A stretch of DNA of 40,829 nt, from positions 1 to 40,829 of the forward strand of contig CAZWYD010000002.1 in NCBI GenBank assembly GCA_964637815.1. Direction: 5' to 3'. The notes beneath the pieces were generated by a model that was not told the DNA's origin, did not search any database, and worked only from the letters and a program-made list of their open reading frames with translations. Both the position numbers and the translations under genes were made by a program. The DNA comes from an uncultured Planctomycetia bacterium. GTDB lineage: Bacteria > Omnitrophota > Gorgyraeia > Gorgyraeales > Gorgyraeaceae. Positions 2,967 to 40,829 of this stretch are shown in pieces. Each line of letters starts with the position of its first letter. Position 1 is the stretch's first letter.

Positions 2967-3053
2967 GGTGCCGGAGGTGGGAGTCGAACCCACATGAGGG
3001 GTTGCCTCACACGATTTTGAGTCGTGCGCGTCAGCCAGTTCCGCCACTCCGGC
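2966..3053 (-). tRNA. tRNA-Leu (anticodon CAA), class II with long variable arm, CCA encoded
   Basis: The reverse complement is GCCGGAGTGGCGGAACTGGCTGACGCGCACGACTCAAAATCGTGTGAGGCAACCCCTCATGTGGGTTCGACTCCCACCTCCGGCACCA. Acceptor stem GCCGGAG/CTCCGGC; anticodon stem CACGA/TCGTG with loop CT-CAA-AA; variable-arm stem TGAGG/CCTCA; T-arm GTGGG-TTCGACT-CCCAC. Confidence 0.92.
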
Positions 3054-9394: not shown

Positions 9395-12055
9395 CTACTT
9401 TGGCAGGTTGAAGATAAAGGTTGAACCTTTACCTGGGGTGCTCTCTACTCTCATGCGGCCTTTGTGGAGTTCTACTATGTCTTTTGCTATTGGAAGGCCA
9501 AGACCTGTGCCTTCTTTTTTCTCTGCAACAACCCTTACGAATTTATCAAAGATCTTCTCGCACTCTTCTTTTGTCATGCCCGGGCCAGTGTCCTGGATTT
9601 CCACCTGCACCTCATCCTGCAATTCGGCAATCTTTACAGTAACACCTCCCTTGTCAGTGAACTTCAGGGCATTGCCTACAAGATTCACAAAGACCTGTGT
9701 CAATTTGTCTTCGTCTGCCTTGATGCTAACGGCCTTATCTGGAAATTCTCGTTTTAGGTCCACCTTCTTTTTCCTGGCTACACTATCAAATTCTTTAAGA
9801 ACTCCTTTTGCCAGTTCTACCACATTCAAAGTTTCCTTCTTGAGTGACATTTTGCCTGATTCGATCTTGGATAAATCCAGAAGATTATTCACGAGCCTCG
9901 CGAGCCTGTTTACAACCCTGAACACGTCGCCCAGTATCTCCTGTTGTTTTGGCTGGACCTTCCCTGCAAAACCTTTATCAATATTATCTAAATTACCTGT
10001 TATCAGGGTAAGTGGCGTCCTTAATTCATGCACTACGTTTGCCACAAAGTCTGACTTCATCCTGTCCAGCTCTTTAAGCTTAGAATTGATCTTCTCTAAT
10101 TCATCTTTCTTGAAAACAAGGGTCTTGTTTGCCTCTCCCAGCTGAGCAGTCCTTTCCTTTACCTTGTTCTCTAAATTTGTATAGAGTTCCTTGAGCTCCC
10201 CTGCCATTGTGTTAAATCCCTCTGCAAGATCCTGTATCTCATCCCCTGTCTTTATGTTCAATCGATGATCCAGGTTGCCCTTACCTATTATGCCAGCGCC
10301 ACTGTAAAGTTCTTGGATAGGATTCGTTATGGAGCTCGTAGTGTAGAAAATAATAAATACTGCTATAAAAGCCACTACACCTATTATGATAAATATCACG
10401 ATATTGATAGTCCTTATCCTATTCGTAAGCTCTTTTTTGTTCCTTTCAATCTGACCAATCTCTGCCTCCACTGCCTTGGCTAAGCGATCTTTTAAATCAC
10501 CCTGTAATTCTATAAGGGTCCACCCGCGTTCCTTCATAATGCTATCATGACTATCAATAACACCTAAGACAGCGCTATTGAAACTATCTAGCTGCAGCTC
10601 TATTTCTTTTATAAACACAGAATCAGCACGCTTCTTAGAAAGATTCCTGTATCTATTCATGTATTTTTTCATATCAAAATACGACTCTGAATACTGGTCC
10701 TTGTACTTTAGTTCCTGTTCATCTAAATAATCCATAATGAACCTGGACGAACATGAAAGTCCATCCTTGAGATGCATCAATATCCACCTCGCAGGCACAA
10801 GCTTCTCCAAGATATCCTGCGGATCCTTTGCCTCTTTTATCAAAGAATCCTTTTGCGCCAGAAGTTCGTCAATCTTGTTTTCAATCTCTAATCCTATGGA
10901 CAAAAACTCTGAAAGGCTGCTCTGTTTCTTGTCAAAGAGTGCCATGTTAGAATCTATAAGCTTTAAAATAGCATTGTCTGATTCTATGATATCGTCTAAA
11001 AACTTCTCTGTGTCCCTGAGTCGCGCATGACGGCCATAATCCTTAAGGGCCTTATCTATATTCTGTCTAAGCTGATGATAGCGAGCTATGTATGTTTCAT
11101 CTCCAGTCAATATATATCTGCTGCTTGCCCTCCACGACTCTGCCAGATCCTTTTCGATCTTGGAGATATTGTGTATGGCTGGTATATCCTCTGTAAGCGC
11201 AGCCCCTGCTCCCAGCTTTGAAGAAATACCACTTTTCTTAAGTGCTATTATCTTATCCAGCGCCTCCATAAAATCCTTGTCTTTAGCCAAGAGCAGATCC
11301 ACGCAACTCCCTGCTTTAGCCCTAAGATCAATTATTGAGCTGACAATTGATTTAATTTCAGTAGAGGACTCTATAAGTTCAGTCGCAAGACTGCGCTCTT
11401 TATCAGAAAGAGAATATCCGTAGTAATTTTTGTAATCTCTTAAGGATTTCTCCAATATCAAGACATCTTCTTCATTAAGGTCTGAGAGTGCCTTTGAAAA
11501 CCTCAGGCGAGCCTCTGTTATAAGGTCTGAGGCAGGGAGATACTGCGTCTGGACCAACAAAAAATCCTTCTCATCCTGTATCTTTTTTTCTTCAAAATCA
11601 AAGAGGCTGTCGAGTTTCTTTGTAAATTTGATCTCTATTGCCCTGAGATCCTTGTATAGAGTGTCTATATCTTTTCTGTTTTTAAATATATCCTGCGCAG
11701 CTCCATTTATCTGGGCGGTTAAATCCTCTACCTCTTCAAAAAGCCCTGTTTCCTCCTCCTCAGATATAAACTTTGTAAGAGATGATATATCCTGCTCTAT
11801 TCCTTTATGCGCCTTTTCGTAATTTATCTTAAAATTCTCGTTTCCCGTTATGAGAAAATTATTGATTTCAGAAAGAAGTTTTTCCATTGAAATGGCTATC
11901 TGGTAGGTAGACCTGGATGCAGGCAGATCCCTTGCAAAGACCTGACTCAAGCCTCTATATATATGCCTTAGACTATAGATGGAAAGTGCACCAAGAATTA
12001 TAACGAGTAGAAAGGTTACGAAAAAACTAATCCCAATCTTTCTGCTTATACGCAT
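9395..12055 (-). CDS. Sensor histidine kinase with a large extracytoplasmic helical (CHASE3-like) sensor, HAMP, HisKA and HATPase_c domains
   Basis: TM1 ISFFVTFLLVIILGALSIYSL. A ~540-aa helical ectodomain with two LTG(D/N)E..Y-type CHASE3-like signatures (FLITGNENFKINYEKA and YILTGDETYIARYHQL). TM2, then a HAMP domain (GDEIQDLAEGFNTMAGEL). H-box HELRTPLT. N/G boxes (VNLVGNALKFT, DTGPGM, GTGLGLPIAK). Confidence 0.9.
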   Translation of the reverse strand: MRISRKIGISFFVTFLLVIILGALSIYSLRHIYRGLSQVFARDLPASRSTYQIAISMEKLLSEINNFLITGNENFKINYEKAHKGIEQDISSLTKFISEEEETGLFEEVEDLTAQINGAAQDIFKNRKDIDTLYKDLRAIEIKFTKKLDSLFDFEEKKIQDEKDFLLVQTQYLPASDLITEARLRFSKALSDLNEEDVLILEKSLRDYKNYYGYSLSDKERSLATELIESSTEIKSIVSSIIDLRAKAGSCVDLLLAKDKDFMEALDKIIALKKSGISSKLGAGAALTEDIPAIHNISKIEKDLAESWRASSRYILTGDETYIARYHQLRQNIDKALKDYGRHARLRDTEKFLDDIIESDNAILKLIDSNMALFDKKQSSLSEFLSIGLEIENKIDELLAQKDSLIKEAKDPQDILEKLVPARWILMHLKDGLSCSSRFIMDYLDEQELKYKDQYSESYFDMKKYMNRYRNLSKKRADSVFIKEIELQLDSFNSAVLGVIDSHDSIMKERGWTLIELQGDLKDRLAKAVEAEIGQIERNKKELTNRIRTINIVIFIIIGVVAFIAVFIIFYTTSSITNPIQELYSGAGIIGKGNLDHRLNIKTGDEIQDLAEGFNTMAGELKELYTNLENKVKERTAQLGEANKTLVFKKDELEKINSKLKELDRMKSDFVANVVHELRTPLTLITGNLDNIDKGFAGKVQPKQQEILGDVFRVVNRLARLVNNLLDLSKIESGKMSLKKETLNVVELAKGVLKEFDSVARKKKVDLKREFPDKAVSIKADEDKLTQVFVNLVGNALKFTDKGGVTVKIAELQDEVQVEIQDTGPGMTKEECEKIFDKFVRVVAEKKEGTGLGLPIAKDIVELHKGRMRVESTPGKGSTFIFNLPK

Positions 12056-15117: not shown

Positions 15118-15717
15118 TTAGCGGCTTATCTTGAAATACGAAAGTGCCTGATTAAGGTCCTTTTTATCCTTTTTTAACTCAGAGACTATCTTCTTAATAT
15201 CCTCTTTCAATAGCAGTTCCTGGTTCGAACTGTCTGTAAGCTCGTCGATCAAACCGTCCAGCTTTTCTGAAACACCAACTACTTTTAAAAGCCCCACGCT
15301 CAGGCCTTGGGTCATGTTGTTAAAGGCGCTGACCATATTCTGAAACTGGTCTTTCTTCCTTATCTTTAGATCAGGAGTGAGCTCGCCATTTCCGATCTTC
15401 TGGGCATATTTTTCAAACCTATACATAGGCCCTGCGAGCCGATGCGTCATGAAAAGCACTATAATACTCGCTGCTATTGCCAATAGCAGGCCTACTATAA
15501 GCCCTCCCAATAGCAAACCAGGCAATATGTAATCAGCTGTACTTTTCACTACCAGTCTCGAATTTTCGAAAGACGTGGTAAGCGTGCGGCTAGAAGACGC
15601 GTATAAAACTATCCCAAAGACCACACAGCCAATTGCCACCAACGTACAAAACTTCAATATAAACTCTGTCTGAAAACTCTTGTTTATGAAATAATTCCTG
15701 CGCTTGTATTTTGCCAT
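15118..15717 (-). CDS. Two-TM HAMP domain membrane protein
   Basis: 199 aa. KRRNYFINKSFQ N-terminal box. Two TM helices. HAMP-like segment RLAGPMYRFEKYAQKIGNGELTPDLKIRKKDQFQNMVSAFNNM. Strong RBS GGAGG. Confidence 0.75.
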   Translation of the reverse strand: MAKYKRRNYFINKSFQTEFILKFCTLVAIGCVVFGIVLYASSSRTLTTSFENSRLVVKSTADYILPGLLLGGLIVGLLLAIAASIIVLFMTHRLAGPMYRFEKYAQKIGNGELTPDLKIRKKDQFQNMVSAFNNMTQGLSVGLLKVVGVSEKLDGLIDELTDSSNQELLLKEDIKKIVSELKKDKKDLNQALSYFKISR

Positions 15718-32350: not shown

Positions 32351-34818
32351 AGTGCCTTTAATTTAACGCTACTGATATAGAGATTCCTATCTTCCCCGGC
32401 CTCTACGTCGTAATAGTCGTTATCAAATATAATCTCAAACCTATTAATAGGATAATCTACGATTACAATCCCCGGATAAAAATCCCAGGATTCATTATCT
32501 ACATAAGCATCCATGGACTTTTTATCATTAAATCTCACTATCATATGAGGCCAGATATCTACTGCTTTCTTCCCTCTTGCCTTAATATTAAATTCATATA
32601 TTCCTGCTGGCAAAATCATGTCCAAGTTTAATCTCCCATCCTTGTGCATACCTTTTCTGATTTCAAATTTCACTTCAAAATTACTATCATCTAGATCAAA
32701 TGCCACAGATGCGCCATTAAATGCCAATATATTAGATGCATCCTCTGGCTTTTTCAGTAGCTTATACTTCACCTGATAGCCTTCTGGATTTTTAGAATCT
32801 AAGGTGATTGACCTTTCTGAAAATCTTTTAGCTGTTTCAGTAAATCCTTTCCTTAGATAATAATCAGATAATGCTGCAAATAATACTGATTTAGTCTTTC
32901 TCGAAGAAGTCATCTCTTTAAATTTATTAAAAGCCTCTGCTACAGAAAATATCTTCATGTAACACCGTAACTGCCCTAAATGAGCAGGTTCTTTAGATTC
33001 AAGAAACCCCTCTGCTATACTATAAAACACCAATGCCTTATTGTAATCTTTGGAAAGAAAAGCCAAGTTCCCTGCATCCAGATAGCTCTCGCCATCAGGA
33101 TGTTTGTCGTAACTGGACATTACATATGAGGCCTTTCTGTACATCTGGCTCGAAAGGTGCGAAGCTCCTGTATTTAACAAGAATTCTGCGGATTTCGTCA
33201 GGTAATAAGAATTCAAGGGGTCTAACTCAACTGCCCTATTATAAGCTGAAACTGCTGATTTAGAAATTCCTTGATCCTTGTAGACATCAGCCAATCCTAT
33301 CCATGACCATGCATCTATAGGATTTAGACGCAGGGCCTGTTTGAAACTTTTTTCGGACTCTTTCATATCGGCCTTTTTACGGTAAATACCGGCAAGCTTA
33401 TAAGGATAAAGATAATTCAATGGGCTTAATCTTGTAGCCAGAATACCCATATGCCTTGCCTTCTCTAGTTCATTTTTGTAGAGGGCCTTGGTAGATGCCG
33501 ATGAGCAGAGTTCTGCAAAGAAAAGACTTCCCATGAAAACGATCAATGCCGCTACAGTTACAAAAATCGCCGACTTCAAAAATCTATAGATAACCGGGCG
33601 CTGTCTTAAAATAATAGATTCATATCCTTTTTCTTTCTTCGAGGTCAGATTAAATATAAGAGCAGAAAATACTGTAAATATTATGACATTTGCCGGTATA
33701 TAAAAATTAAAATCTGCTATCGCATGAATCGATAGACTTAAAATGGCTGTTGATAAAGCAAGTGAAAGCCATTTCTTAAAGGACGTCCTTGCTATACTAT
33801 GTGTCCTAAAGCCCTTTCGAATTATCATAGCGACAATCAGGACCATTAGCATAAAACCAAAGATACCCATATCAGAAAAGACTTGCAGGTAATCATTATG
33901 AGCGAAATTTGCAAACCGATTTAACTCCGCAGGTCTATATTTTGGGAAATTATAGATAAAACTTCCCGGGCCTGTGCCAAGAAGCCAGTTATCCTTTATT
34001 ATGCCGACTGACCCTTTCCAAATTAACGATCGGCCTGATAGATCAAATTCAACGTAGCTGGATATCCTTTTGAACAATACGTCAATATGGGCGCTATTAA
34101 ATATAAAGACTGCCATGGTTACCAAAAGAAGTATAATTATGAAAAGACTGAATCTGGCCCTGCCTTTTCTAAATATGGCCGTGAACATGAAAATCATTGC
34201 GATTGTCAACGCAAACCATCCACCACGGGACAGGGAAAGTAAAAATGCTATAGACATAATTAAAAAAGAATATACGTACATTGTCTTTTTCCCTATCTCT
34301 TTTTCTGATAAAATCATGCCCACACATAGAGGCATACAAAGTTCCATTAGTCCTGCGAAATGGTTATGATTGACATATGTAGCAGAAAGAAATCTAGAGA
34401 CATCCCACCATGATCTATTTATTACTCCCAGATATTGAAGTATGCCGAACAGGGCAATACCTGTGCCTGTTATCAAAATTACATCTAGTAATTTTTTTAT
34501 ATCGCGTTCTTTGTTTATAAAATTTATTACTATATAAAATATGGCTGCCAGACTCAACAGTCTTACAAATTCCGCAAGCGTTGCATAAATATAGCTGGAA
34601 TTAAAAGATGCTACAACAAAGACAAAGAAAAAAGCTAGTATCGGTATATCCAGTGGAGTCCTCTTTATCTTTATATCCTTTTCTGAAAAGATCTTGAAGA
34701 TACAGAAAAGCCCGAGTGATAACGCCAGGATCTGTACAGGCGCAAAGGCCCATGCACGCGTTGCTCCTCTCGCTATAGGTGCAAATATCAGTATTGAGAT
34801 TAAGAAAAGTTGTATCAT
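32347..34818 (-). CDS. Wzy_C family membrane protein fused to TPR repeats and a C-terminal beta-sandwich (CBM-like) domain
   Basis: 823 aa. LSLSRGGWFALTIAMIF Wzy_C signature within ~12 TM helices. TPR units follow (SWIGLADVYKDQGISKSAVSAYNRAVELDP). The terminal ~140 aa are beta-rich and end in NDYYDVEAGEDRNLYISSVKL, which resembles carbohydrate-binding modules. Confidence 0.8.
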   Translation of the reverse strand: MIQLFLISILIFAPIARGATRAWAFAPVQILALSLGLFCIFKIFSEKDIKIKRTPLDIPILAFFFVFVVASFNSSYIYATLAEFVRLLSLAAIFYIVINFINKERDIKKLLDVILITGTGIALFGILQYLGVINRSWWDVSRFLSATYVNHNHFAGLMELCMPLCVGMILSEKEIGKKTMYVYSFLIMSIAFLLSLSRGGWFALTIAMIFMFTAIFRKGRARFSLFIIILLLVTMAVFIFNSAHIDVLFKRISSYVEFDLSGRSLIWKGSVGIIKDNWLLGTGPGSFIYNFPKYRPAELNRFANFAHNDYLQVFSDMGIFGFMLMVLIVAMIIRKGFRTHSIARTSFKKWLSLALSTAILSLSIHAIADFNFYIPANVIIFTVFSALIFNLTSKKEKGYESIILRQRPVIYRFLKSAIFVTVAALIVFMGSLFFAELCSSASTKALYKNELEKARHMGILATRLSPLNYLYPYKLAGIYRKKADMKESEKSFKQALRLNPIDAWSWIGLADVYKDQGISKSAVSAYNRAVELDPLNSYYLTKSAEFLLNTGASHLSSQMYRKASYVMSSYDKHPDGESYLDAGNLAFLSKDYNKALVFYSIAEGFLESKEPAHLGQLRCYMKIFSVAEAFNKFKEMTSSRKTKSVLFAALSDYYLRKGFTETAKRFSERSITLDSKNPEGYQVKYKLLKKPEDASNILAFNGASVAFDLDDSNFEVKFEIRKGMHKDGRLNLDMILPAGIYEFNIKARGKKAVDIWPHMIVRFNDKKSMDAYVDNESWDFYPGIVIVDYPINRFEIIFDNDYYDVEAGEDRNLYISSVKLKAL

Positions 34819-35585
34819 ATAATCTTAGTAAAAACCTCTACAATGTCCCCGTCAAATTGCGTGCCCCTGTGCTGTATAAGCTCAGCTATAGCCATATCCT
34901 TTGAAATAGACGTCTTGTAGGAATGCTCTGAAATCATTGAATCATACGCCTCTGCAATAGCTATAATGCGCGCGCCCACATGGATATCATTTCCTTTAAG
35001 GCCTTTTGGATAACCAGCGCCATCTATCCTCTCATGATGCTGGATCACAAGATCCTCAACACCATTCAATTCCTTTATCGAACTCAATGTCTGGTGGCCC
35101 AATACAGGATGTTTCTTTATCAATTCATATTCCCGGGAGCTCAATGGCCCTGATTTCAAAAGTATGCGCTTGTCTATGCCTATATGCCCTATATCATGAA
35201 CAAGGCCTGCTATTTTTGTGCGATTTAGCTCTGGATCATTTAAACCCAGCTTTTTTGCTGTCTGGGCGCATAGCTCCGAGACCTTTTGCACATGTAGGGC
35301 CAGGGATCTTCCTGCAGGGCCGATCGCATTAAATAAGGCCATGGTGATATTGGACAAGAATACGGCTGAAGAATGTCTGCTTGCTGCATCTTCAGGCTCT
35401 GCACTGCTGCAATCCATGGTGACCATAAGTTCCGTCTTGCTAATCCTGTGGTGGCCTCCTGGCGTTCTAAGTGTCCTGAGCTTGCCTGCATAGATGTAGT
35501 TCTTGATAGTAGACAGGCTCAGATTAAAATATTCTGCAGCCTGTTTTGGTGTAAAATAAATGTCTCCTTCGAATTGCTTTTTCAT
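34815..35585 (-). CDS. BldC/excisionase-type HTH fused to an HD-GYP domain (apparently catalytic)
   Basis: N-terminus: FTPKQAAEYFNLSLSTIKNYIYAGKLRTLRTPGGHHRISKTEL (HTH with a TPGGH.R motif). C-terminus: LALHVQKV, HDIGHIGI, KKHP, HHERIDGAGYPKGL and GARIIAIAEAYDSM, which together form a complete HD-GYP signature. GGAG RBS. The stop overlaps the Wzy-TPR start as ATGA. Confidence 0.85.
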   Translation of the reverse strand: MKKQFEGDIYFTPKQAAEYFNLSLSTIKNYIYAGKLRTLRTPGGHHRISKTELMVTMDCSSAEPEDAASRHSSAVFLSNITMALFNAIGPAGRSLALHVQKVSELCAQTAKKLGLNDPELNRTKIAGLVHDIGHIGIDKRILLKSGPLSSREYELIKKHPVLGHQTLSSIKELNGVEDLVIQHHERIDGAGYPKGLKGNDIHVGARIIAIAEAYDSMISEHSYKTSISKDMAIAELIQHRGTQFDGDIVEVFTKII

Positions 35586-35611: not shown

Positions 35612-35631
35612 ATTTCCGCGAAAGCGGAAAT
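35612..35631. promoter_or_regulatory. 8-4-8 palindrome upstream of the HTH-HD-GYP gene (candidate operator or RNA hairpin)
   Basis: ATTTCCGC-GAAA-GCGGAAAT lies 27-46 nt upstream of the ATG at 35585, in the only sizeable gap (137 nt) inside the polysaccharide operon. Confidence 0.4.
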
Positions 35632-35722
35632 CTATTGTGTTGCGATTTTAATTGATTTTATGTTTTTTTAAGCACTTTATGTTAAGACTGTCCTTCTAGT
35701 TCTCTGATGCAATAATCAGGAA

Positions 35723-37783
35723 TTAAGCTACGCTGTAATTCTTTCCGTAGTAATACTGCTGGTAGGAATAATCGCTAGTTAGGGATATATTGTTAACTAT
35801 GACGCCTAAAATCTTTGCGTCTACCTTTTCTAAGAGTTCCTTAGATTTTGTCAACAGGTCCTTTGTTGCCCTGCCGCCTTCAGCTATCAGGAGTACCCCC
35901 GTACAGACACTCGAGAGTAATGCCGCGTCTGTCACAAGCGTGACAGGCGGTGTGTCAAATATGATCTTTGAAAATCCAGCTGAGGCCTTTTCTATGAAAA
36001 GTTTCATCTGGTCTGAAGAAATCAATTCGGCAGACCTGCTAATAGAACCTCCAGAAGTAACAATACTTAAATTATCTATGCCAGAAGGCTTGAGAATACT
36101 TTCAAAATCTGCTTCTTTTGATAAAAACTGTGAAAGGCCTATAGCATTATCATCATTAAATACTGTGTGAAGCCTTGGCTTTCTCATATCAGAGTCTACT
36201 AAAAGCACTCTTTCTCCGCTATTAGCTATCATGAGCGCGAGATTCGCCGCAGTAATGGTCTTTCCCTCTTGGGGCACAGAACTCGTTATAACTATAGTCT
36301 TCGCTGAGCCAGAATGATTTAGAGAGAATAACAGGTTTGTCCTTATTGAACGGTAGGCCTCTGAGGCCAATGAAGTAGAATCTTTCTCAACAACACGATC
36401 AATATCACTCTTTTTCTTTATATAATTCCCGTCTAATCTAACCCTAGGTATAGACCCTAATAAAGGCAGCTGAAGCACACTGGCTATCTCACTGGAATCC
36501 TTCAAGCTGATATCCATGTAATCCCTGAAGAACGCAAGGGCAATACCGCCTATCAAACCTACGATTATGGAAAGTGCAATATTTAATTTCTTCCTTGGCC
36601 TTATTGGTTCTCTGGGACGCTCTGCTAGATCCTGTACACGCACATTATTTGCCTGTATCTGGCTTGCAATGGATGTCTCTTTTAATCTATTTAAAACAAT
36701 CTCTAAGATACGGTTGTTTGTTTCAATCTCCCTATTTAAAGCGCCATACTCTATAATATTGCGCTCTAATTCTAAGGCATTTTTCTTTTGATAAACAAAG
36801 GCCTGTTCAAACTTTTTCTCTTCCTCGACAGAACTATTATATTCGTTCCCGATCTCATTCTTTATGCGCGATTTAAAATAATCTATATTCTCTAAGAGTT
36901 TTATCATCATGGGATGTTTATGTTTATAAACCTTTTTGTATTCTACCAAGAGCTCCTCTTGTTTTAGATAATTATCCTTCAAGAGCTGCAGGGACTTATT
37001 ATCTGTTAGGAGTGTTGGCAGATTCTCCATGGTTATATTCCCTTCTCTATCAATAAGACTATTATAGGTAGTCTCTGCGGCTATCCTCCTCTCCTGTGCT
37101 GCCAGATAGCTGGCATTTAACTTAACCAAGCCATCGTTGATCATGGTCTCCTGATTTTTTATAGAGACAATGTCATTCTGCTCCTTATAGGCCTGGAGTT
37201 TCAGCTCTGATTCCCTTACCTTTTTCTTCTGAGTCTCAACCTCTTCCCTCAACCAATCCTGCGCATCCTGCGACATCGTCATCTTTAGCGCAATATTGGA
37301 TTTGACATAGACATCTGCAAATTCGTTTGCTATTGCAGAGGCTATCTTGGGATCATTATCCTCTGCGTGTATATTGATAATCCTTGTGTCACGCAATAAT
37401 TCTACCTTTATCTTTTCAAGAAGGGTCTCTATAGGGTCTTTGGACTCATCAAACTCGTCTCTTTTGGATAGCCTTAGATTTTTTATGACATGATGGGCTG
37501 TGCGTCTACCCCTTATTATCTCCTGCTGTGTTTCTATATAATCCCTGTATGCAAAATAATTGGGCTCGCCAAGCTTGACAACATCCTTTACTGATAAGAT
37601 AGCAGGGCTCTCCACATCCACTATTACTGTGGCCGTAGCCCTGTAGACCTCTTCCTGCATAAAAGACGCCAACGTCACGAGCGTAACGGTGATCAGGAAA
37701 AAGCTTATGAGGATCCACTTCCTGCGACGGATTATATTAAGGTAATCACGCATGTGTATCTCTTTATTGAAATTAATATGCAT
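35723..37783 (-). CDS. wzc: Wzc-type polysaccharide co-polymerase with C-terminal BY-kinase (PCP-2a)
   Basis: Wzz-like N-terminus with 2 TM helices flanking a long coiled-coil periplasmic region. Walker A SSVPQEGKT, Walker A' LLVDSDMRKP, Walker B IIFDTPPV. C-terminal Tyr cluster DYSYQQYYYGKNY. Start set to the ATG at 37783 (AAGGAG 5 nt upstream). Confidence 0.9.
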   Translation of the reverse strand: MHINFNKEIHMRDYLNIIRRRKWILISFFLITVTLVTLASFMQEEVYRATATVIVDVESPAILSVKDVVKLGEPNYFAYRDYIETQQEIIRGRRTAHHVIKNLRLSKRDEFDESKDPIETLLEKIKVELLRDTRIINIHAEDNDPKIASAIANEFADVYVKSNIALKMTMSQDAQDWLREEVETQKKKVRESELKLQAYKEQNDIVSIKNQETMINDGLVKLNASYLAAQERRIAAETTYNSLIDREGNITMENLPTLLTDNKSLQLLKDNYLKQEELLVEYKKVYKHKHPMMIKLLENIDYFKSRIKNEIGNEYNSSVEEEKKFEQAFVYQKKNALELERNIIEYGALNREIETNNRILEIVLNRLKETSIASQIQANNVRVQDLAERPREPIRPRKKLNIALSIIVGLIGGIALAFFRDYMDISLKDSSEIASVLQLPLLGSIPRVRLDGNYIKKKSDIDRVVEKDSTSLASEAYRSIRTNLLFSLNHSGSAKTIVITSSVPQEGKTITAANLALMIANSGERVLLVDSDMRKPRLHTVFNDDNAIGLSQFLSKEADFESILKPSGIDNLSIVTSGGSISRSAELISSDQMKLFIEKASAGFSKIIFDTPPVTLVTDAALLSSVCTGVLLIAEGGRATKDLLTKSKELLEKVDAKILGVIVNNISLTSDYSYQQYYYGKNYSVA

Positions 37784-37793
37784 TTTTTCTCCT

Positions 37794-38360
37794 TTAGAAG
37801 AAACTCTCAGGTACAACAACAATATCGCCTGGCTTTACAGGTATGTCTTTTTCTTTTTCGCCTTTTTTCGTTATATCTGTTATCTTTACGGATATAGTAA
37901 GTTCTTTGCCATTATCCACACGCAGCACCTTGGTTCCATTCTGGGCTGCGCCTTCTTTAAAGCCGCCTGCCATTGCAATTGCCTCCATTACTGTGGTAGG
38001 CCTATCTTTGAAGAGTTCGTATTCGCCAGGCTTATTCACAAAACCCATGACAAATACCTTTTTCTCTGTGTATTTTTCTATAAAGACATTGACCTGAGGA
38101 TCTACAAGATAGTCTTTTTCAAGTAAGGACATTATCTCTTTCTCTATCTCATTTACTGTAAGATCCTTTACATGTACCGTGCCGATCAGAGGAAAGGTGA
38201 TCTCGCCTTTTGAGCTGACACGCGCCTTAGTAGTAAGGTCTGCCTGCTCATACACAGTAATAAGAAGCACATCCCCAGCATCCACCTTGTACTCTTCAGC
38301 ATGAAGCGCGAAAGGATTTAATACTAGAGTTAGTGTTAGTAGAAGGGCTAGATATCTCAA
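37794..38360 (-). CDS. wza: Short OPX (Wza-like) polysaccharide export protein: Poly_export + SLBB only
   Basis: 188 aa. Signal peptide ending LHA-EE. YKVDAGDVLLITVYE...GEITFPLIGTVHVKDLTVNEIEKEI (Poly_export/PES motif). SLBB-like C-terminus (PGDIVVVPESFF). It lacks the long C-terminal OM-spanning helix of E. coli Wza. TTG start. Confidence 0.8.
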   Translation of the reverse strand: MRYLALLLTLTLVLNPFALHAEEYKVDAGDVLLITVYEQADLTTKARVSSKGEITFPLIGTVHVKDLTVNEIEKEIMSLLEKDYLVDPQVNVFIEKYTEKKVFVMGFVNKPGEYELFKDRPTTVMEAIAMAGGFKEGAAQNGTKVLRVDNGKELTISVKITDITKKGEKEKDIPVKPGDIVVVPESFF

Positions 38361-38362
38361 GC

Positions 38363-39535
38363 TTAAAATACCGCCTTTGCAGTAAGTGTGGCTAGGTTCT
38401 GTTCGTAATCAAATCCATCAAAATTAGAATCCCTGTCCACATGTTCGAGCTGCAGAGTAAATGTCAGCCATTTTCGCATATAATACCTGAAACCAGCGCC
38501 CAAAGAAGCATATCTATCTTTTCTCTTCTGCGTCTCTGTCCCTACTGTAGTTTCTCGTGGATAGGAATTGATTTGGTAGATGCCATTTATAAAACCAAGC
38601 AGTTTGGGTGTGAAATAGTGATCATATATCGCAGTAACGTTTTCTACAGTGTAATAATTATTTACGTCGTAGGTCGATTCATGTGCGGTACGAGTAAACG
38701 AGAGCTTTAAGGCATCCTTATCTGAAAAGGTATGTGTCAGATCTGCGTATAACACGGCTGTGTCAAAATCAGTCTGAGCTTCATTGTCATAATCGCGCGT
38801 CTGATAACCTGCCTTTATTGTAGCAGTTGTCTTTGGAGTCAGCTCTCCTATTGCGCCAATAAGAAACTGGTGATAATCCGAATCTGAACGTGTATTCTCA
38901 TCATATCTGATTTGGCCAAAATCATATTCGAAAAGAAGCTTTGTCTTTGAAAATGTCTGGTGGGTAACTATAAAAGAATATATATCTTCGTCTCTGTCAT
39001 AGATATCATAGGCAGGGTTATCCCTGTACTCGCGTATGAAATGTTCATAACCAAGCTGGATACCGAGCCGCTCTTTCTGAAAGGCAGCCTTTATGCCCGT
39101 TGCATTATCAGTTCGTTTTGTCCTTTCAGTATCCTCTGTGGATGGTCTCTCATATAGGCGCTTATAGTCATTGTATACATTAAAGGTAATATCCCGCCAG
39201 TTTACCTCCATGTCTCCAGACAAATAGTGGCTAGTGCTATCCTGGGAACTTTCATTTATATACTGGCTGATCTCTGCATGATAGTCAAGCTTTAGGAGAT
39301 TGTCACTGAATGGCCATTCGACAGATACACCTGGTACAAGAGTAACTATAAAATCATCCTTTTCATCATCAGAATCCAGGTATATATTATCATCATATTG
39401 AAGTCGTATCTCACCCCAAGGGATGATCTCTGCGTCGCCCATCTTTAGTCCTTCTGCAGCATATAATGTGGGGTTAATTACAAGAATGGAAGTCAAAAAG
39501 CACAAACTTACTACAATTTTACACACCTTCTTCAT
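38363..39535 (-). CDS. Outer-membrane beta-barrel protein, first gene of the export module
   Basis: 390 aa. Signal peptide ending LYA-AE. Repeated Y/F-x-aromatic beta-strand pattern. C-terminal TLTAKAVF with terminal Phe. RBS GAGGTGG. Confidence 0.7.
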   Translation of the reverse strand: MKKVCKIVVSLCFLTSILVINPTLYAAEGLKMGDAEIIPWGEIRLQYDDNIYLDSDDEKDDFIVTLVPGVSVEWPFSDNLLKLDYHAEISQYINESSQDSTSHYLSGDMEVNWRDITFNVYNDYKRLYERPSTEDTERTKRTDNATGIKAAFQKERLGIQLGYEHFIREYRDNPAYDIYDRDEDIYSFIVTHQTFSKTKLLFEYDFGQIRYDENTRSDSDYHQFLIGAIGELTPKTTATIKAGYQTRDYDNEAQTDFDTAVLYADLTHTFSDKDALKLSFTRTAHESTYDVNNYYTVENVTAIYDHYFTPKLLGFINGIYQINSYPRETTVGTETQKRKDRYASLGAGFRYYMRKWLTFTLQLEHVDRDSNFDGFDYEQNLATLTAKAVF

Positions 39536-39583
39536 AAACCACCTCTTATTTTGTTACTACGATTTTATATGATATTGTATGAT

Positions 39584-39612
39584 AGTATACCATATGAACC
39601 TTATGCTGTCAA
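39584..39612 (-). promoter_or_regulatory. Sigma70-like promoter of the OMP-wza-wzc export operon
   Basis: The minus strand reads TTGACA-N17-TATACT, about 45 nt upstream of the ATG at 39535. The hexamers are the same as in the 7210-7238 promoter. It sits in a very AT-rich 182-nt gap. Confidence 0.5.
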
Positions 39613-39717
39613 ATACTTTTTTAATATTTTTTAAAACTTATCTTAACATTTCATATATATCATATATATTATTTAGAAAGCATTAAATTATAAAGATTAG
39701 AATACTTTGGTAGGAAA

Positions 39718-40629
39718 TTATACTATCTCAAGGAACACGTTAACTAAGTCAGGATCAAACTGGGAACCTGAACTTTCCTTAATAATTGCTTTTGCCTCTT
39801 TCCCAGAATAGGCCTTTCTGTAAGACCTATTGGATATTAAAGCCTGATACACATCTCCTATTGCAATTATGCGTGCGCCTAAGGGAATATCTTCACCCTT
39901 AAGTCCATCTGGATAACCGCTCCCATTGAAGCTTTCATGGTGATGACGGACTAAAGGCTTTGTTTTTTCTAAAAATTTTATATCACTCACGATCCTCTCT
40001 GCAATCTTTGGATGCTCCTTTATTACCTTGAATTCCTGCTCTGTCAACTTTCCTGATTTTCTTAAGATCTGCTCGCTTACTCCGATCTTTCCAATATCGC
40101 GTAAAAACGCTGCGAGTTCCACAGTCCTTTTTTCCTCTGCAGATAAATTTAGACGCTCAGCTATTTTTAACGAACACTTTGCTGTAAAACCCAGATACGC
40201 ATCATCCCGTGTCTCTCTCATCTCTAATGCCTTTACCAATGCCCTGATAATTACAATGTAGGTCTCGTGAGGATCCTGGTGTATTTTATTGCCATTGGTC
40301 TTGATGAATTCATTTGTGCCATTTGTCAGCTCTTCCATAAATGCCTCTTCGAGCTGAGCAGGCAGATCTTGGCGAAGGATGCGGTGGTGACCGCCTGGGG
40401 TCTTAAAGGATTTTATTTTTCCTTGGTAGATGTAATTCTTAATGGTTTGAACGCCGACCTTCAATAATCTCGCAGCTTCCTTTGTTGTCAGGATGGGTTT
40501 TTTATATAGGCTAAGATTATTGTGATTTTCTTTGTCGTTTTTCACTATTAAGTAAAAAATTAAAATAACTGCATGCAAACCACTAACTCTATGTTTATTA
40601 TATATTTGACTAAACATTTTTGCAAGCAT
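39718..40629 (-). CDS. BldC/excisionase-type HTH fused to a degenerate HD-GYP domain (HD replaced by RD)
   Basis: LTTKEAARLLKVGVQTIKNYIYQGKIKSFKTPGGHHRILRQDL, then AAFLRDIGKIGV (RD where HD is expected), KEHP, HHESFNGSGYPDGL and GARIIAIGDVYQAL. The first ~40 codons (a hydrophobic stretch, no RBS seen) may not be translated, so the start is uncertain. Confidence 0.8.
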   Translation of the reverse strand: MLAKMFSQIYNKHRVSGLHAVILIFYLIVKNDKENHNNLSLYKKPILTTKEAARLLKVGVQTIKNYIYQGKIKSFKTPGGHHRILRQDLPAQLEEAFMEELTNGTNEFIKTNGNKIHQDPHETYIVIIRALVKALEMRETRDDAYLGFTAKCSLKIAERLNLSAEEKRTVELAAFLRDIGKIGVSEQILRKSGKLTEQEFKVIKEHPKIAERIVSDIKFLEKTKPLVRHHHESFNGSGYPDGLKGEDIPLGARIIAIGDVYQALISNRSYRKAYSGKEAKAIIKESSGSQFDPDLVNVFLEIV

Positions 40630-40657
40630 TTTTTAAGAAAAATCGACTGGCAAGGAT

Positions 40658-40686
40658 TTGAATATAGGTTAACCATGTGGTAAACT
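40658..40686 (+). promoter_or_regulatory. Possible sigma70-like promoter for the pilin gene
   Basis: TTGAAT-N17-TAAACT, about 35 nt upstream of the ATG at 40721. Confidence 0.35.
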
Positions 40687-40720
40687 TGTAGTAGAGGAAA
40701 GAAAGGGGGTGATAAAAGTG

Positions 40721-40829
40721 ATGGGATTAAAAACCAGGCACGGTTTCACGCTCGTAGAGATCATGATAGTCGTTGCAATTATATCTTTATTGGCAGCAAT
40801 TGCCATACCGAATTTGCTACGAGCAAGGC
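40721..40829 (+). CDS. Type IV pilin / T2SS pseudopilin-like protein, N-terminal fragment (continues past the window edge)
   Basis: MGLKTRHG|FTLVEIMIVVAIISLLAAIAIPNLLRAR carries a prepilin peptidase site G|F with Glu at +5 and the hydrophobic alpha1-N helix. RBS AAGGGGGT. A GTG at 40718 is an alternative start. Confidence 0.8.
   Translation, partial: MGLKTRHGFTLVEIMIVVAIISLLAAIAIPNLLRAR

Follow-up and report, generated by a model that had tools for sequence, protein, structure and literature searches.

A degenerate RD-type HD-GYP domain on a BldC-like HTH: a candidate c-di-GMP receptor at an Omnitrophota polysaccharide export locus

What might an HD-GYP domain do in a DNA-binding protein once its catalytic HD dyad has been replaced by RD? 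This question is raised by a 40,829-nt stretch of DNA (hereafter the window; positions 1 to 40,829 of contig CAZWYD010000002.1, assembly GCA_964637815.1) from an uncultured bacterium of the Omnitrophota. Here, two genes encoding helix-turn-helix (HTH)-HD-GYP proteins lie on either side of a polysaccharide export module on the minus strand, to which the coordinates of this region of the window refer unless stated otherwise: the RD-type gene (39718-40629 in a mechanical list of open reading frames (ORFs), with an intact frame of 303 aa, Q303) and the gene for the 256-aa Q256-type protein (34815-35585). A preliminary description of the sequence had proposed that the former is enzymatically dead but functional, and that the two form an active/inactive pair. 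From the comparisons described below, we propose that the RD type is a one-component transcription regulator in which the HD-GYP domain has turned from an enzyme into a receptor of cyclic di-GMP (c-di-GMP) and which controls polysaccharide export, a reading to which we give about an even chance of being correct.

The RD-type protein is probably shorter than the listed ORF, with 275 aa encoded at 39718-40545 from a GTG start at position 40545. We rejected the start codon of the 303-aa ORF in favor of this GTG because a promoter falls inside the initial 11 codons of that ORF and because the N-termini of orthologues (MKN..(N)..LYKK.ILTTKEAA) correspond to the GTG; residue numbers throughout are nevertheless those of the 303-aa frame. 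Residues 47-89 (40363-40491) form an HTH_17, an excisionase/BldC-like winged HTH with columns that are invariant across the clades of both paralogues. It matched PF12728 with 47 bits (cut-off 27) and TIGR01764 with 37.8 bits (cut-off 28.8), and the BldC model NF033787 matched below its cut-off. Residues 141-295 (39745-40209) form the degenerate HD-GYP domain, which matched HD_5 (PF13487) with 130.9 bits (cut-off 27.2). Matches to PF12728 and PF13487 were found in both paralogues, which share 35% identity, so the common architecture noted in the preliminary description was borne out. The AlphaFold2 (AF2) model of the RD-type protein has a mean predicted local distance difference test (pLDDT) score of 85, with values above 90 over the HD-GYP domain, and two long helices (88-111 and 120-139) join this domain to the HTH. 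With Foldseek, the HD-GYP domain was matched best to PA4781 (E 1e-11, TMt 0.77) and to c-di-GMP-bound DvhD (9rbz; E about 3e-11, TMt 0.77), and the HTH best to BldC-DNA complexes and also to Xis (TM about 0.8).

The active site was mapped by phmmer against the Protein Data Bank (PDB) and by MAFFT alignments with 120 and then 157 homologues; about 230 homologues were compared overall. As a reference we used PmGH, in which the metal ligands are E185, H189, H221, D222, H250, H276, H277 and D305; alanine at each of these abolishes activity, except at E185 and D305, so that H221A is inactive (PMC4159591). D183, K225 and D308 are also essential, the alanine mutants of D183 and K225 being dead, whereas Y285, R314 and K317 contact c-di-GMP, and hydrogen bonds join R192 and D308 to one another and to H189 (PMC4159591). 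In the phmmer alignments, LRDIGK of the RD type stands opposite LHDIGK in V-cGAP3 (5z7c), which is specific for cyclic GMP-AMP (cGAMP) and is the best PDB sequence match of the protein, opposite MHDIGK in PmGH (4mcw) and opposite LHDIGK in PA4781 (4r8z). The RD therefore occupies the homologous position, as the preliminary description had supposed.

In Q303, H221 and D222 of PmGH correspond to R177 and D178 (codons CGC GAT, 40096-40101, with the CGC of R177 at 40099-40101), so the HD dyad of a competent HD-GYP phosphodiesterase is lacking. The H..R motif of H189 and R192 is replaced by Y145 and F148 (40186-40197), D305 and D308 correspond to D259, still an aspartate, and Q262 (39844-39855), and E185 corresponds to R141. 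Other residues are kept: K225 is found as K181, H250 as H206, H276/H277 as H230/H231, Y285 as Y239 and R314 as R268, while K317 corresponds to R271. The G-site histidine pair and the GYP loop read HHESFNGSGYP (39910-39942), which was scored as a match to the HHExxDGxGYP motif. Thus, five of the seven binuclear ligands (H189, H221, D222, H250, H276, H277 and D305) are present in Q303, Y145 and R177 replacing the other two. Across the HTH-HD-GYP family the E185 position is I, F, L or V; therefore, the family belongs to the Y/F subgroup, which is predicted to be binuclear (PMC4159591), and not to the trinuclear E/D-T-G subgroup.

These replacements are not peculiar to a single protein. The closest relatives of the window are metagenome-assembled genomes of Omnitrophota, Candidatus Gorgyraea atricola among them (loci of relatives are given L numbers, and homologous proteins P numbers). 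The 12 closest homologues, with 63-100% identity, form a monophyletic RD clade in a neighbor-joining (NJ) tree, with the canonical protein P0014 as its sister; P0001, from an ENA metagenome, is identical to Q303. We compared this clade with 107 canonical HTH-HD-GYPs. The H221 position is Arg in 10 members and Lys in two (His in 106 of the 107 canonical proteins), the R192 position is Phe in 11 of 12 (Arg in 106/107), and the D308 position is Gln in all 12 (Asp in 104/107). At the D305 position there are nine Gly, two Asp and one Ala, compared with Glu or Asp in 103/107. The position of the first His, H189, is occupied by His in seven members, Gln in three, Tyr in one and Asp in one, while all 107 canonical proteins have His. 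Because seven of the 12 keep this His, its loss does not define the clade. Thus, the preliminary description correctly reported that the upstream metal-ligand His is missing from Q303, but this does not hold as a trait of the clade, and the replacing residue, Y145, immediately precedes the quoted string LGFTAK rather than lying within it.

Retained throughout the RD clade are D222, K225, H250, H276, H277, E278, the G-Y-P residues and I294, and the D183 position is still acidic. The equivalent of R314 (R268) is Arg in all 12 members but L, S, R or F in canonical relatives, and the equivalent of K317 is also Arg in all 12. In other words, the M site is dismantled (H221 to R/K, R192 to F, D308 to Q, usually D305 to G, with H189 relaxed), and purifying selection has preserved the G metal site, the Lys of the catalytic pocket, the GYP loop and the Arg residues that contact guanine. 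Given that R192, D308 and H189 are hydrogen-bonded to one another in PmGH, the changes strike one connected shell of the M site, whereas the G site is spared.

Comparison of five genomes in pairs gave a dN/dS of 0.07-0.19 for the degenerate domain, similar to or below that of the Q256-type gene in these genomes (0.13-0.20). Between the same genome pairs, dS was higher for the RD gene (0.98 versus 0.45 for the Q256 gene between the window and L006), which may be due to saturation or to recombination among RD copies, of which G. atricola has two. Because the M-site changes are clade-wide and dN/dS is low, the degenerate domain is functional and under purifying selection, but very probably not catalytic. 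The view that the protein is enzymatically dead but functional fits these data, as judged from the inactivity of H221A in PmGH, the four clustered M-site changes, the dN/dS range and the precedent of DvhD. A profile search with the RD-clade alignment against 1.84 billion representatives gave no clear new clade members, and tandem HD-GYP proteins dominated its matches. RD for HD (AARLRDIGQ) was also seen in the second HD-GYP domain of three long tandem HD-GYPs (P0246, P0260 and P0264), in a regular-expression search that is noisy; the replacement of His by Arg thus appears to be recurrent, with independent origins in these second domains.

Is the RD type, then, one half of an active/inactive pair? 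The Q256-type protein has the same architecture, but its 35% identity to the RD type compares with 50-56% between the RD type and canonical relatives. The NJ tree places the RD clade within an HTH-HD-GYP clade that is separate from the Q256 type. We therefore rejected a recent tandem duplication; the two are old paralogues, and at least 13 other species have the Q256 type without the RD type. The seven binuclear ligands are invariant in 98/98 Q256-type sequences. However, the equivalent of D183 is G in 81 and A in 13 of these sequences, and that of K225 is H in 63, L in 15, Q in 6 and N in 5; in the window, HDIGH stands for HDIGK. Because both D183 and K225 are essential in PmGH, the activity of the Q256 type is an assumption. 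Of the proposed pair, the metal-degenerate member is thus confirmed, whereas the other is not clearly active. In both paralogue clades, the recognition helix (TIKNYIY.GK) and the wing (TPGGHHR) of the HTH show little or no variation.

The export module between the two genes (35723-39535) consists of genes for a BBP2_2/EpsL-like outer membrane protein (OMP; 38363-39535), a Poly_export/Wza-like protein (37794-38360) and a Wzc-like chain-length/tyrosine-kinase protein with Wzz, GNVR and P-loop regions (35723-37822), all identified by domain matches, so the paralogues do flank OMP-Wza-Wzc. The Q256-type gene overlaps by 4 nt a Wzy_C-TPR-CBM60 gene, which is followed by a second Wzy_C gene and by genes for a flippase, glycosyltransferases, an epimerase and a priming transferase. 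Thus, the minus strand carries a single Wzx/Wzy-type polysaccharide cluster between about 12 kb and 40.6 kb. At least 18 species-level genomes share the gene order OMP-Wza-Wzc-[Q256 type]-Wzy/TPR-Wzy-flippase. The RD type lies upstream of the OMP gene, and hence brackets OMP-Wza-Wzc together with the Q256 type, only in the window, L006, L009, L054 and G. atricola, the last with a 10-kb insert before the OMP gene. The preliminary description had made its proposal depend on the pairing with export genes being conserved in relatives, and in these four it is.

In the at least 13 other Omnitrophota species, the Q256 type lies between Wzc and Wzy, and housekeeping genes (PurH, a Mur-ligase-like gene, MnmE and GTP cyclohydrolase I) fill the slot upstream of OMP. 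In more distant Omnitrophota, the gene directly upstream of OMP encodes either a canonical HTH-HD-GYP (L066) or an HTH-only protein of 65-80 aa (L040, L042 and L046). Since the slot can hold either kind of protein, the HTH is the apparent constant element. The stand-alone HTHs upstream of OMP-Wza-Wzc are of the KTPGGHHR type (L040:9965-10210, L042:9899-10177 and L046:2795-3019). The same type of HTH was also found fused to an SIS-like domain (L037:148-1008) and to a TOBE/Mop-like C-terminus (L047:9947-10405, an Acidobacteriaceae locus).

We also analyzed the promoters. The RD gene has a sigma-70-like promoter, TTGCAA-17-TATAAT (40597-40625), and equivalent TTGACA...TATAAT promoters precede its orthologues in L001, L002, L009 and L054. 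The promoter of OMP-Wza-Wzc, TTGACA-17-TGgTATACT (39584-39612), is conserved phylum-wide with an extended -10 element (AAAAAGTATTGACAA-N14-TGGTATACT). Eight nucleotides past its -10 hexamer lies a tandem direct repeat with a 10-bp period, AATATCA-N3-AAAATCG (39560-39576), which is a candidate operator. A second copy, AAAATCA-N3-AAAATCG (35643-35659), lies in a conserved promoter-like block between Wzc and Q256 (35643-35690). When the pattern AAAATCR-N3-AAAATCR, with its 10-bp period, was scanned on both strands of 18 loci (295 kb), 18 of the 21 matches were on the coding strand within the two promoter zones and three lay in the remaining about 290 kb, compared with a mean of 0.06 matches in shuffled promoter zones. 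The window has two exact matches, one per promoter. Given that the repeats overlap the transcription start region, their occupancy would most simply repress. Between the second repeat and the start of the Q256 gene there is a hairpin with a perfect 8-bp stem, ATTTCCGC GAAA GCGGAAAT (window 35612-35631). Relatives have different, longer hairpins at this site (L003 and L006) or none (L009), and the hairpin might act as an attenuator or derive from a REP-like insertion.

A link to c-di-GMP is suggested by riboswitches near the RD genes of relatives. An Rfam search detected five aptamers of the c-di-GMP-I clan, all above the gathering score: L054:610-692 (RF01051, 58.2 bits), L002:914-996 (RF03167, the GGC variant, 62.8 bits), L067:1798-1880 (RF03167, 62.9 bits), L056:169-246 (RF03167, 59.2 bits) and L051:7402-7480 (RF01051, 59.8 bits). 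An RD-type gene (L054, L002, L067 and L056) or its canonical sister (L051) begins 450-2400 nt downstream. Each aptamer is followed by a terminator-like hairpin and then by a gene for a small secreted repeat protein (L002:1082-1582, L051:7578-8054, L056:332-661, L054:~778-1005 and L067:1965-2192). These small proteins form a family with a signal peptide, a segment LTDAELDQ(I/V)NAG that resembles double-glycine leaders, and repeats ANINAVNSATVVQSNFNVNV...NTNTA(T/I)V(I/T)N.

Taken together, these observations can be arranged in the following model. The RD-type HD-GYP domain would no longer hydrolyze c-di-GMP but would still bind it, as does the HD-GYP of DvhD from Desulfovibrio vulgaris, which binds c-di-GMP metal-free with a Kd of about 99 nM and without hydrolysis, binding being accompanied by splaying of the preceding stalk helices (PMC13090378). 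As in DvhD, binding would re-orient the stalk helices and hence the two HTH domains of a dimer. The re-oriented HTHs would then change the occupancy of the tandem AAAATCR repeats that overlap the OMP-Wza-Wzc transcription start and the Q256-Wzy promoter region. The two paralogues would share these operators, which is probable because their recognition helices and wings are almost identical, and we infer that both can occupy the AAAATCR repeats; they would differ in the way in which they respond to c-di-GMP or consume it. The output would be control of exopolysaccharide (EPS) export, possibly extending to the adjacent pilin or fibre genes. The switch between polysaccharide export and pili suggested in the preliminary description is speculation.

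Several points weigh against this model, whereas the contact residues of DvhD cut both ways. We mapped seven c-di-GMP contacts of DvhD onto Q303 through the phmmer alignment, using a numbering offset of 490 inferred from matching letters at 7/7 positions; Y523 falls outside the alignment. Four of the seven contacts are identical (L577/L195, Y621/Y239, R650/R268 and Y652/Y270), but K582 and E668 are replaced by F200 and S287, and M646 by L264, a conservative change. The repeat pattern was derived from the promoters themselves, so that its enrichment is indicative rather than a clean test, and because the element also occurs in genomes without the RD type, the repeats could serve another factor or the Q256 type alone. 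The 39400-40829 region of the window contains no riboswitch (Rfam, E<=1), and three of the five riboswitches in relatives score best with the GGC variant model; literature searches for the ligand of this c-di-GMP-I-GGC variant gave nothing usable. In addition, a search of the window and of about 1 Mb of the compared loci revealed no GGDEF motif. For c-di-GMP synthesis in this lineage, the evidence consists of the riboswitches and of a preprint that reports GGDEF and PilZ in Omnitrophota.

We also considered the possibility that the degenerate domain binds no nucleotide and is only a dimerization or protein-contact module, in which case the RD type would be a constitutive or partner-controlled DNA-binding regulator. 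Such contacts might involve the GYP loop and GGDEF proteins, as proposed for RpfG, or a heterodimer with the Q256 type. Inactive HD-GYPs that work via protein contacts have been described (PA2572, HnoD and RpfG), the GYP loop is invariant in the RD clade, and the HTH-only proteins in the same slot of other Omnitrophota indicate that a ligand-free regulator can suffice. However, purifying selection also acts on pocket residues without an obvious structural role, such as R268, which is invariant here and variable in canonical relatives, and the riboswitch linkage points to c-di-GMP biology at the locus; we thus consider this explanation rather unlikely. A decaying pseudogene or a sequencing error might be imagined because the single-nucleotide change CAC to CGC would give RD. 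We rejected this, and regard its probability as practically nil, in view of the identical P0001, the clade of at least 12 members that combines R/K, F and Q at the three positions, dN/dS of about 0.1, the intact frame and a conserved promoter of its own.

A further possibility is that the RD type is still a phosphodiesterase with a mononuclear or rearranged metal centre, in which Arg/Lys177 would stand in as a positive charge. In favor of this, the G-site ligands and K225 have been retained, the D183 position is acidic, and Q303 keeps D259; moreover, HD-GYP metal sites are heterogeneous, and RpfG has been reported as active although it lacks H189 and E185. Set against this are the loss of activity of H221A in PmGH, the joint change of three or four residues of the M-site shell with D305 lost in 9/12 members, and the fact that the HD-GYPs with altered HD dyads in our sources (DvhD, HnoD and ECA3548) are all inactive, which makes residual catalysis quite improbable. 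An equally small chance is assigned to the idea that the domain senses another nucleotide (3'3'-cGAMP, pGpG or c-di-AMP) instead of c-di-GMP. The best PDB match is to the cGAMP-specific V-cGAP3, DvhD also binds 3'3'-cGAMP with a Kd of about 0.5 uM (PMC13090378), and three neighbouring riboswitches prefer the GGC variant model; however, in L054 and L051 the standard c-di-GMP-I models score above threshold, the R314/K317 equivalents, which contact guanine, have been retained, and nothing was found that indicates cGAMP synthases.

Here, a natural degenerate variant adjoins its presumed target promoters with a candidate operator, and relatives carry c-di-GMP riboswitches at this junction, so that the locus offers a compact system for direct tests. 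Such a system would be a first way into the regulation of the conserved polysaccharide export locus in uncultivated Omnitrophota. The coordinated R/F/Q/G changes suggest a defined route from HD-GYP enzyme to receptor in which one metal site is kept, unlike in the metal-free DvhD. The homologue search returned 4764 matches at E<=1e-10, thousands of them in metagenomes, and most of the best matches share the HTH_17-HD-GYP architecture. Tentatively, and with more doubt than belief, we raise a wider possibility: HTH_17-HD-GYP proteins may be a large class of c-di-GMP-responsive one-component factors with the HD-GYP domain as sensor, trigger enzymes if canonical and pure receptors in the RD clade. 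In Omnitrophota they may be dedicated regulators of the phylum-wide OMP-Wza-Wzc-Wzy locus via tandem AAAATCR operators, and in the Gorgyraea-like lineage the non-hydrolysing RD type and the metal-containing Q256 type may compete for these operators, thereby switching matrix production in response to c-di-GMP.

The surroundings of the RD gene contain further genes of possible interest. A prepilin-type gene (MGLKTRHGFTLVEIM...IPNLLRAR; 40721-40829, plus strand) with the N-terminus GFTLVEIM lies divergently from the RD gene and is cut by the window end; its N-terminus agrees with the divergent type IV pilin neighbour of the preliminary description. A full-length homologue (L054:8-454) matches IV_pilin_GFxxxE, with PilA/GspG models below their cut-offs. 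Pilin-like genes occur near the RD gene in the window, L054, L009 and L002, and are divergent in the window and L054. In relatives the adjacency is interrupted by an IS91 transposase (L009), by DUF1016 and GIY-YIG genes (L002), and also by the riboswitch with its small ORF. The second RD copy of G. atricola (P0009, L002) lies away from Wza/Wzc. In L001:1-9933, also from G. atricola, the RD-type gene is directly downstream of a giant gene of more than 4154 aa that runs off the locus, and two large ORFs of 1283 and 1000 aa without Pfam matches follow.

Genes for a C39 peptidase and a Pur_ac_phosph_N/Phenol_MetA_deg protein (L052:6301-8475, L001:18742-20822 and L002:4733-6571) follow the RD copies of G. 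atricola as well as the canonical P0018. They resemble FapD/FilB and FapF/FilC of functional-amyloid or Fil-pilus secretion, below family cut-offs. The small riboswitch-linked proteins may be fibre or amyloid subunits that are processed by the nearby C39 peptidase; NCBIfam has no family for them or for the two proteins upstream of the FapD-like peptidase. A fibre-secretion cassette may have been the ancestral setting of the HTH-HD-GYP clade that contains the RD type. Elsewhere in the window, genes for a histidine kinase of the 4HB_MCP/CHASE3-HAMP type and for a small HAMP protein lie at the distal end of the polysaccharide cluster (9395-12055 and 15118-15717), with no cognate response regulator for the kinase seen in the window, and a tRNA gene lies at 2969-3053 on the minus strand.

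How does the RD type compare with known systems? Transcription factors that respond to c-di-GMP span many folds, among them FleQ, VpsT, BldD, BrlR, MrkH and CdbA. The closest likeness is to DvhD (9rbz/9rc0), which also has a degenerate HD-GYP after a helical stalk. However, DvhD, a LapD-like membrane receptor with the order periplasmic domain-PAS-HD-GYP, controls a protease, whereas the RD type has an HTH as output, and DvhD has SQ for HD and MN for HH, with both metal sites gone, whereas the RD type has RD for HD and keeps the HH/H G-site. PmGH (4mcw) and PA4781 (4r8z) share with the RD type the fold, HHExxxGxGYP, the K of HDxGK and R314/K317, but the RD type has other residues in place of the His of HD, the Arg of HxxR and the D308 equivalent. 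Bd1817, PA2572 (YN-GYP), HnoD (SE; QLE) and ECA3548 (HT; ANE) are similar in having altered active-site motifs and a regulatory role, but they carry other substitutions, have other partners (REC, PilZ) and lack a DNA-binding domain, and Bd1817 is without the GYP Tyr that the RD type keeps.

On the DNA-binding side, the HTH_17 of the RD type is like BldC of Streptomyces (6ama/6amk) in sequence and fold, although BldC is a 68-aa stand-alone protein without an effector domain. BldC binds direct repeats as head-to-tail multimers (PMC5859096), and this mode of binding fits the direct repeats with a 10-bp period at the present locus. PdeL (YahA) of E. coli is also alike in that it is a one-component protein with an N-terminal HTH fused to a c-di-GMP-binding phosphodiesterase domain, and as a trigger phosphodiesterase it couples the c-di-GMP level directly to promoter binding (PMC5052742). 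However, PdeL combines a LuxR-type HTH with an active EAL domain of unrelated fold, while the RD type combines HTH_17 with an HD-GYP that is predicted to be inactive; having lost the catalytic dyad, it lacks the active phosphodiesterase of a trigger enzyme. The searched literature contained no description of an HTH-HD-GYP or another HD-GYP-based DNA-binding effector, and the text of a survey of HD-GYP domain architectures mentions no DNA-binding fusion. Thus, degenerate HD-GYP receptors and HTH-fused trigger phosphodiesterases are already established, and what would be new here is a partly metal-retaining RD-type HD-GYP receptor on a BldC-like HTH at the head of a polysaccharide export locus.

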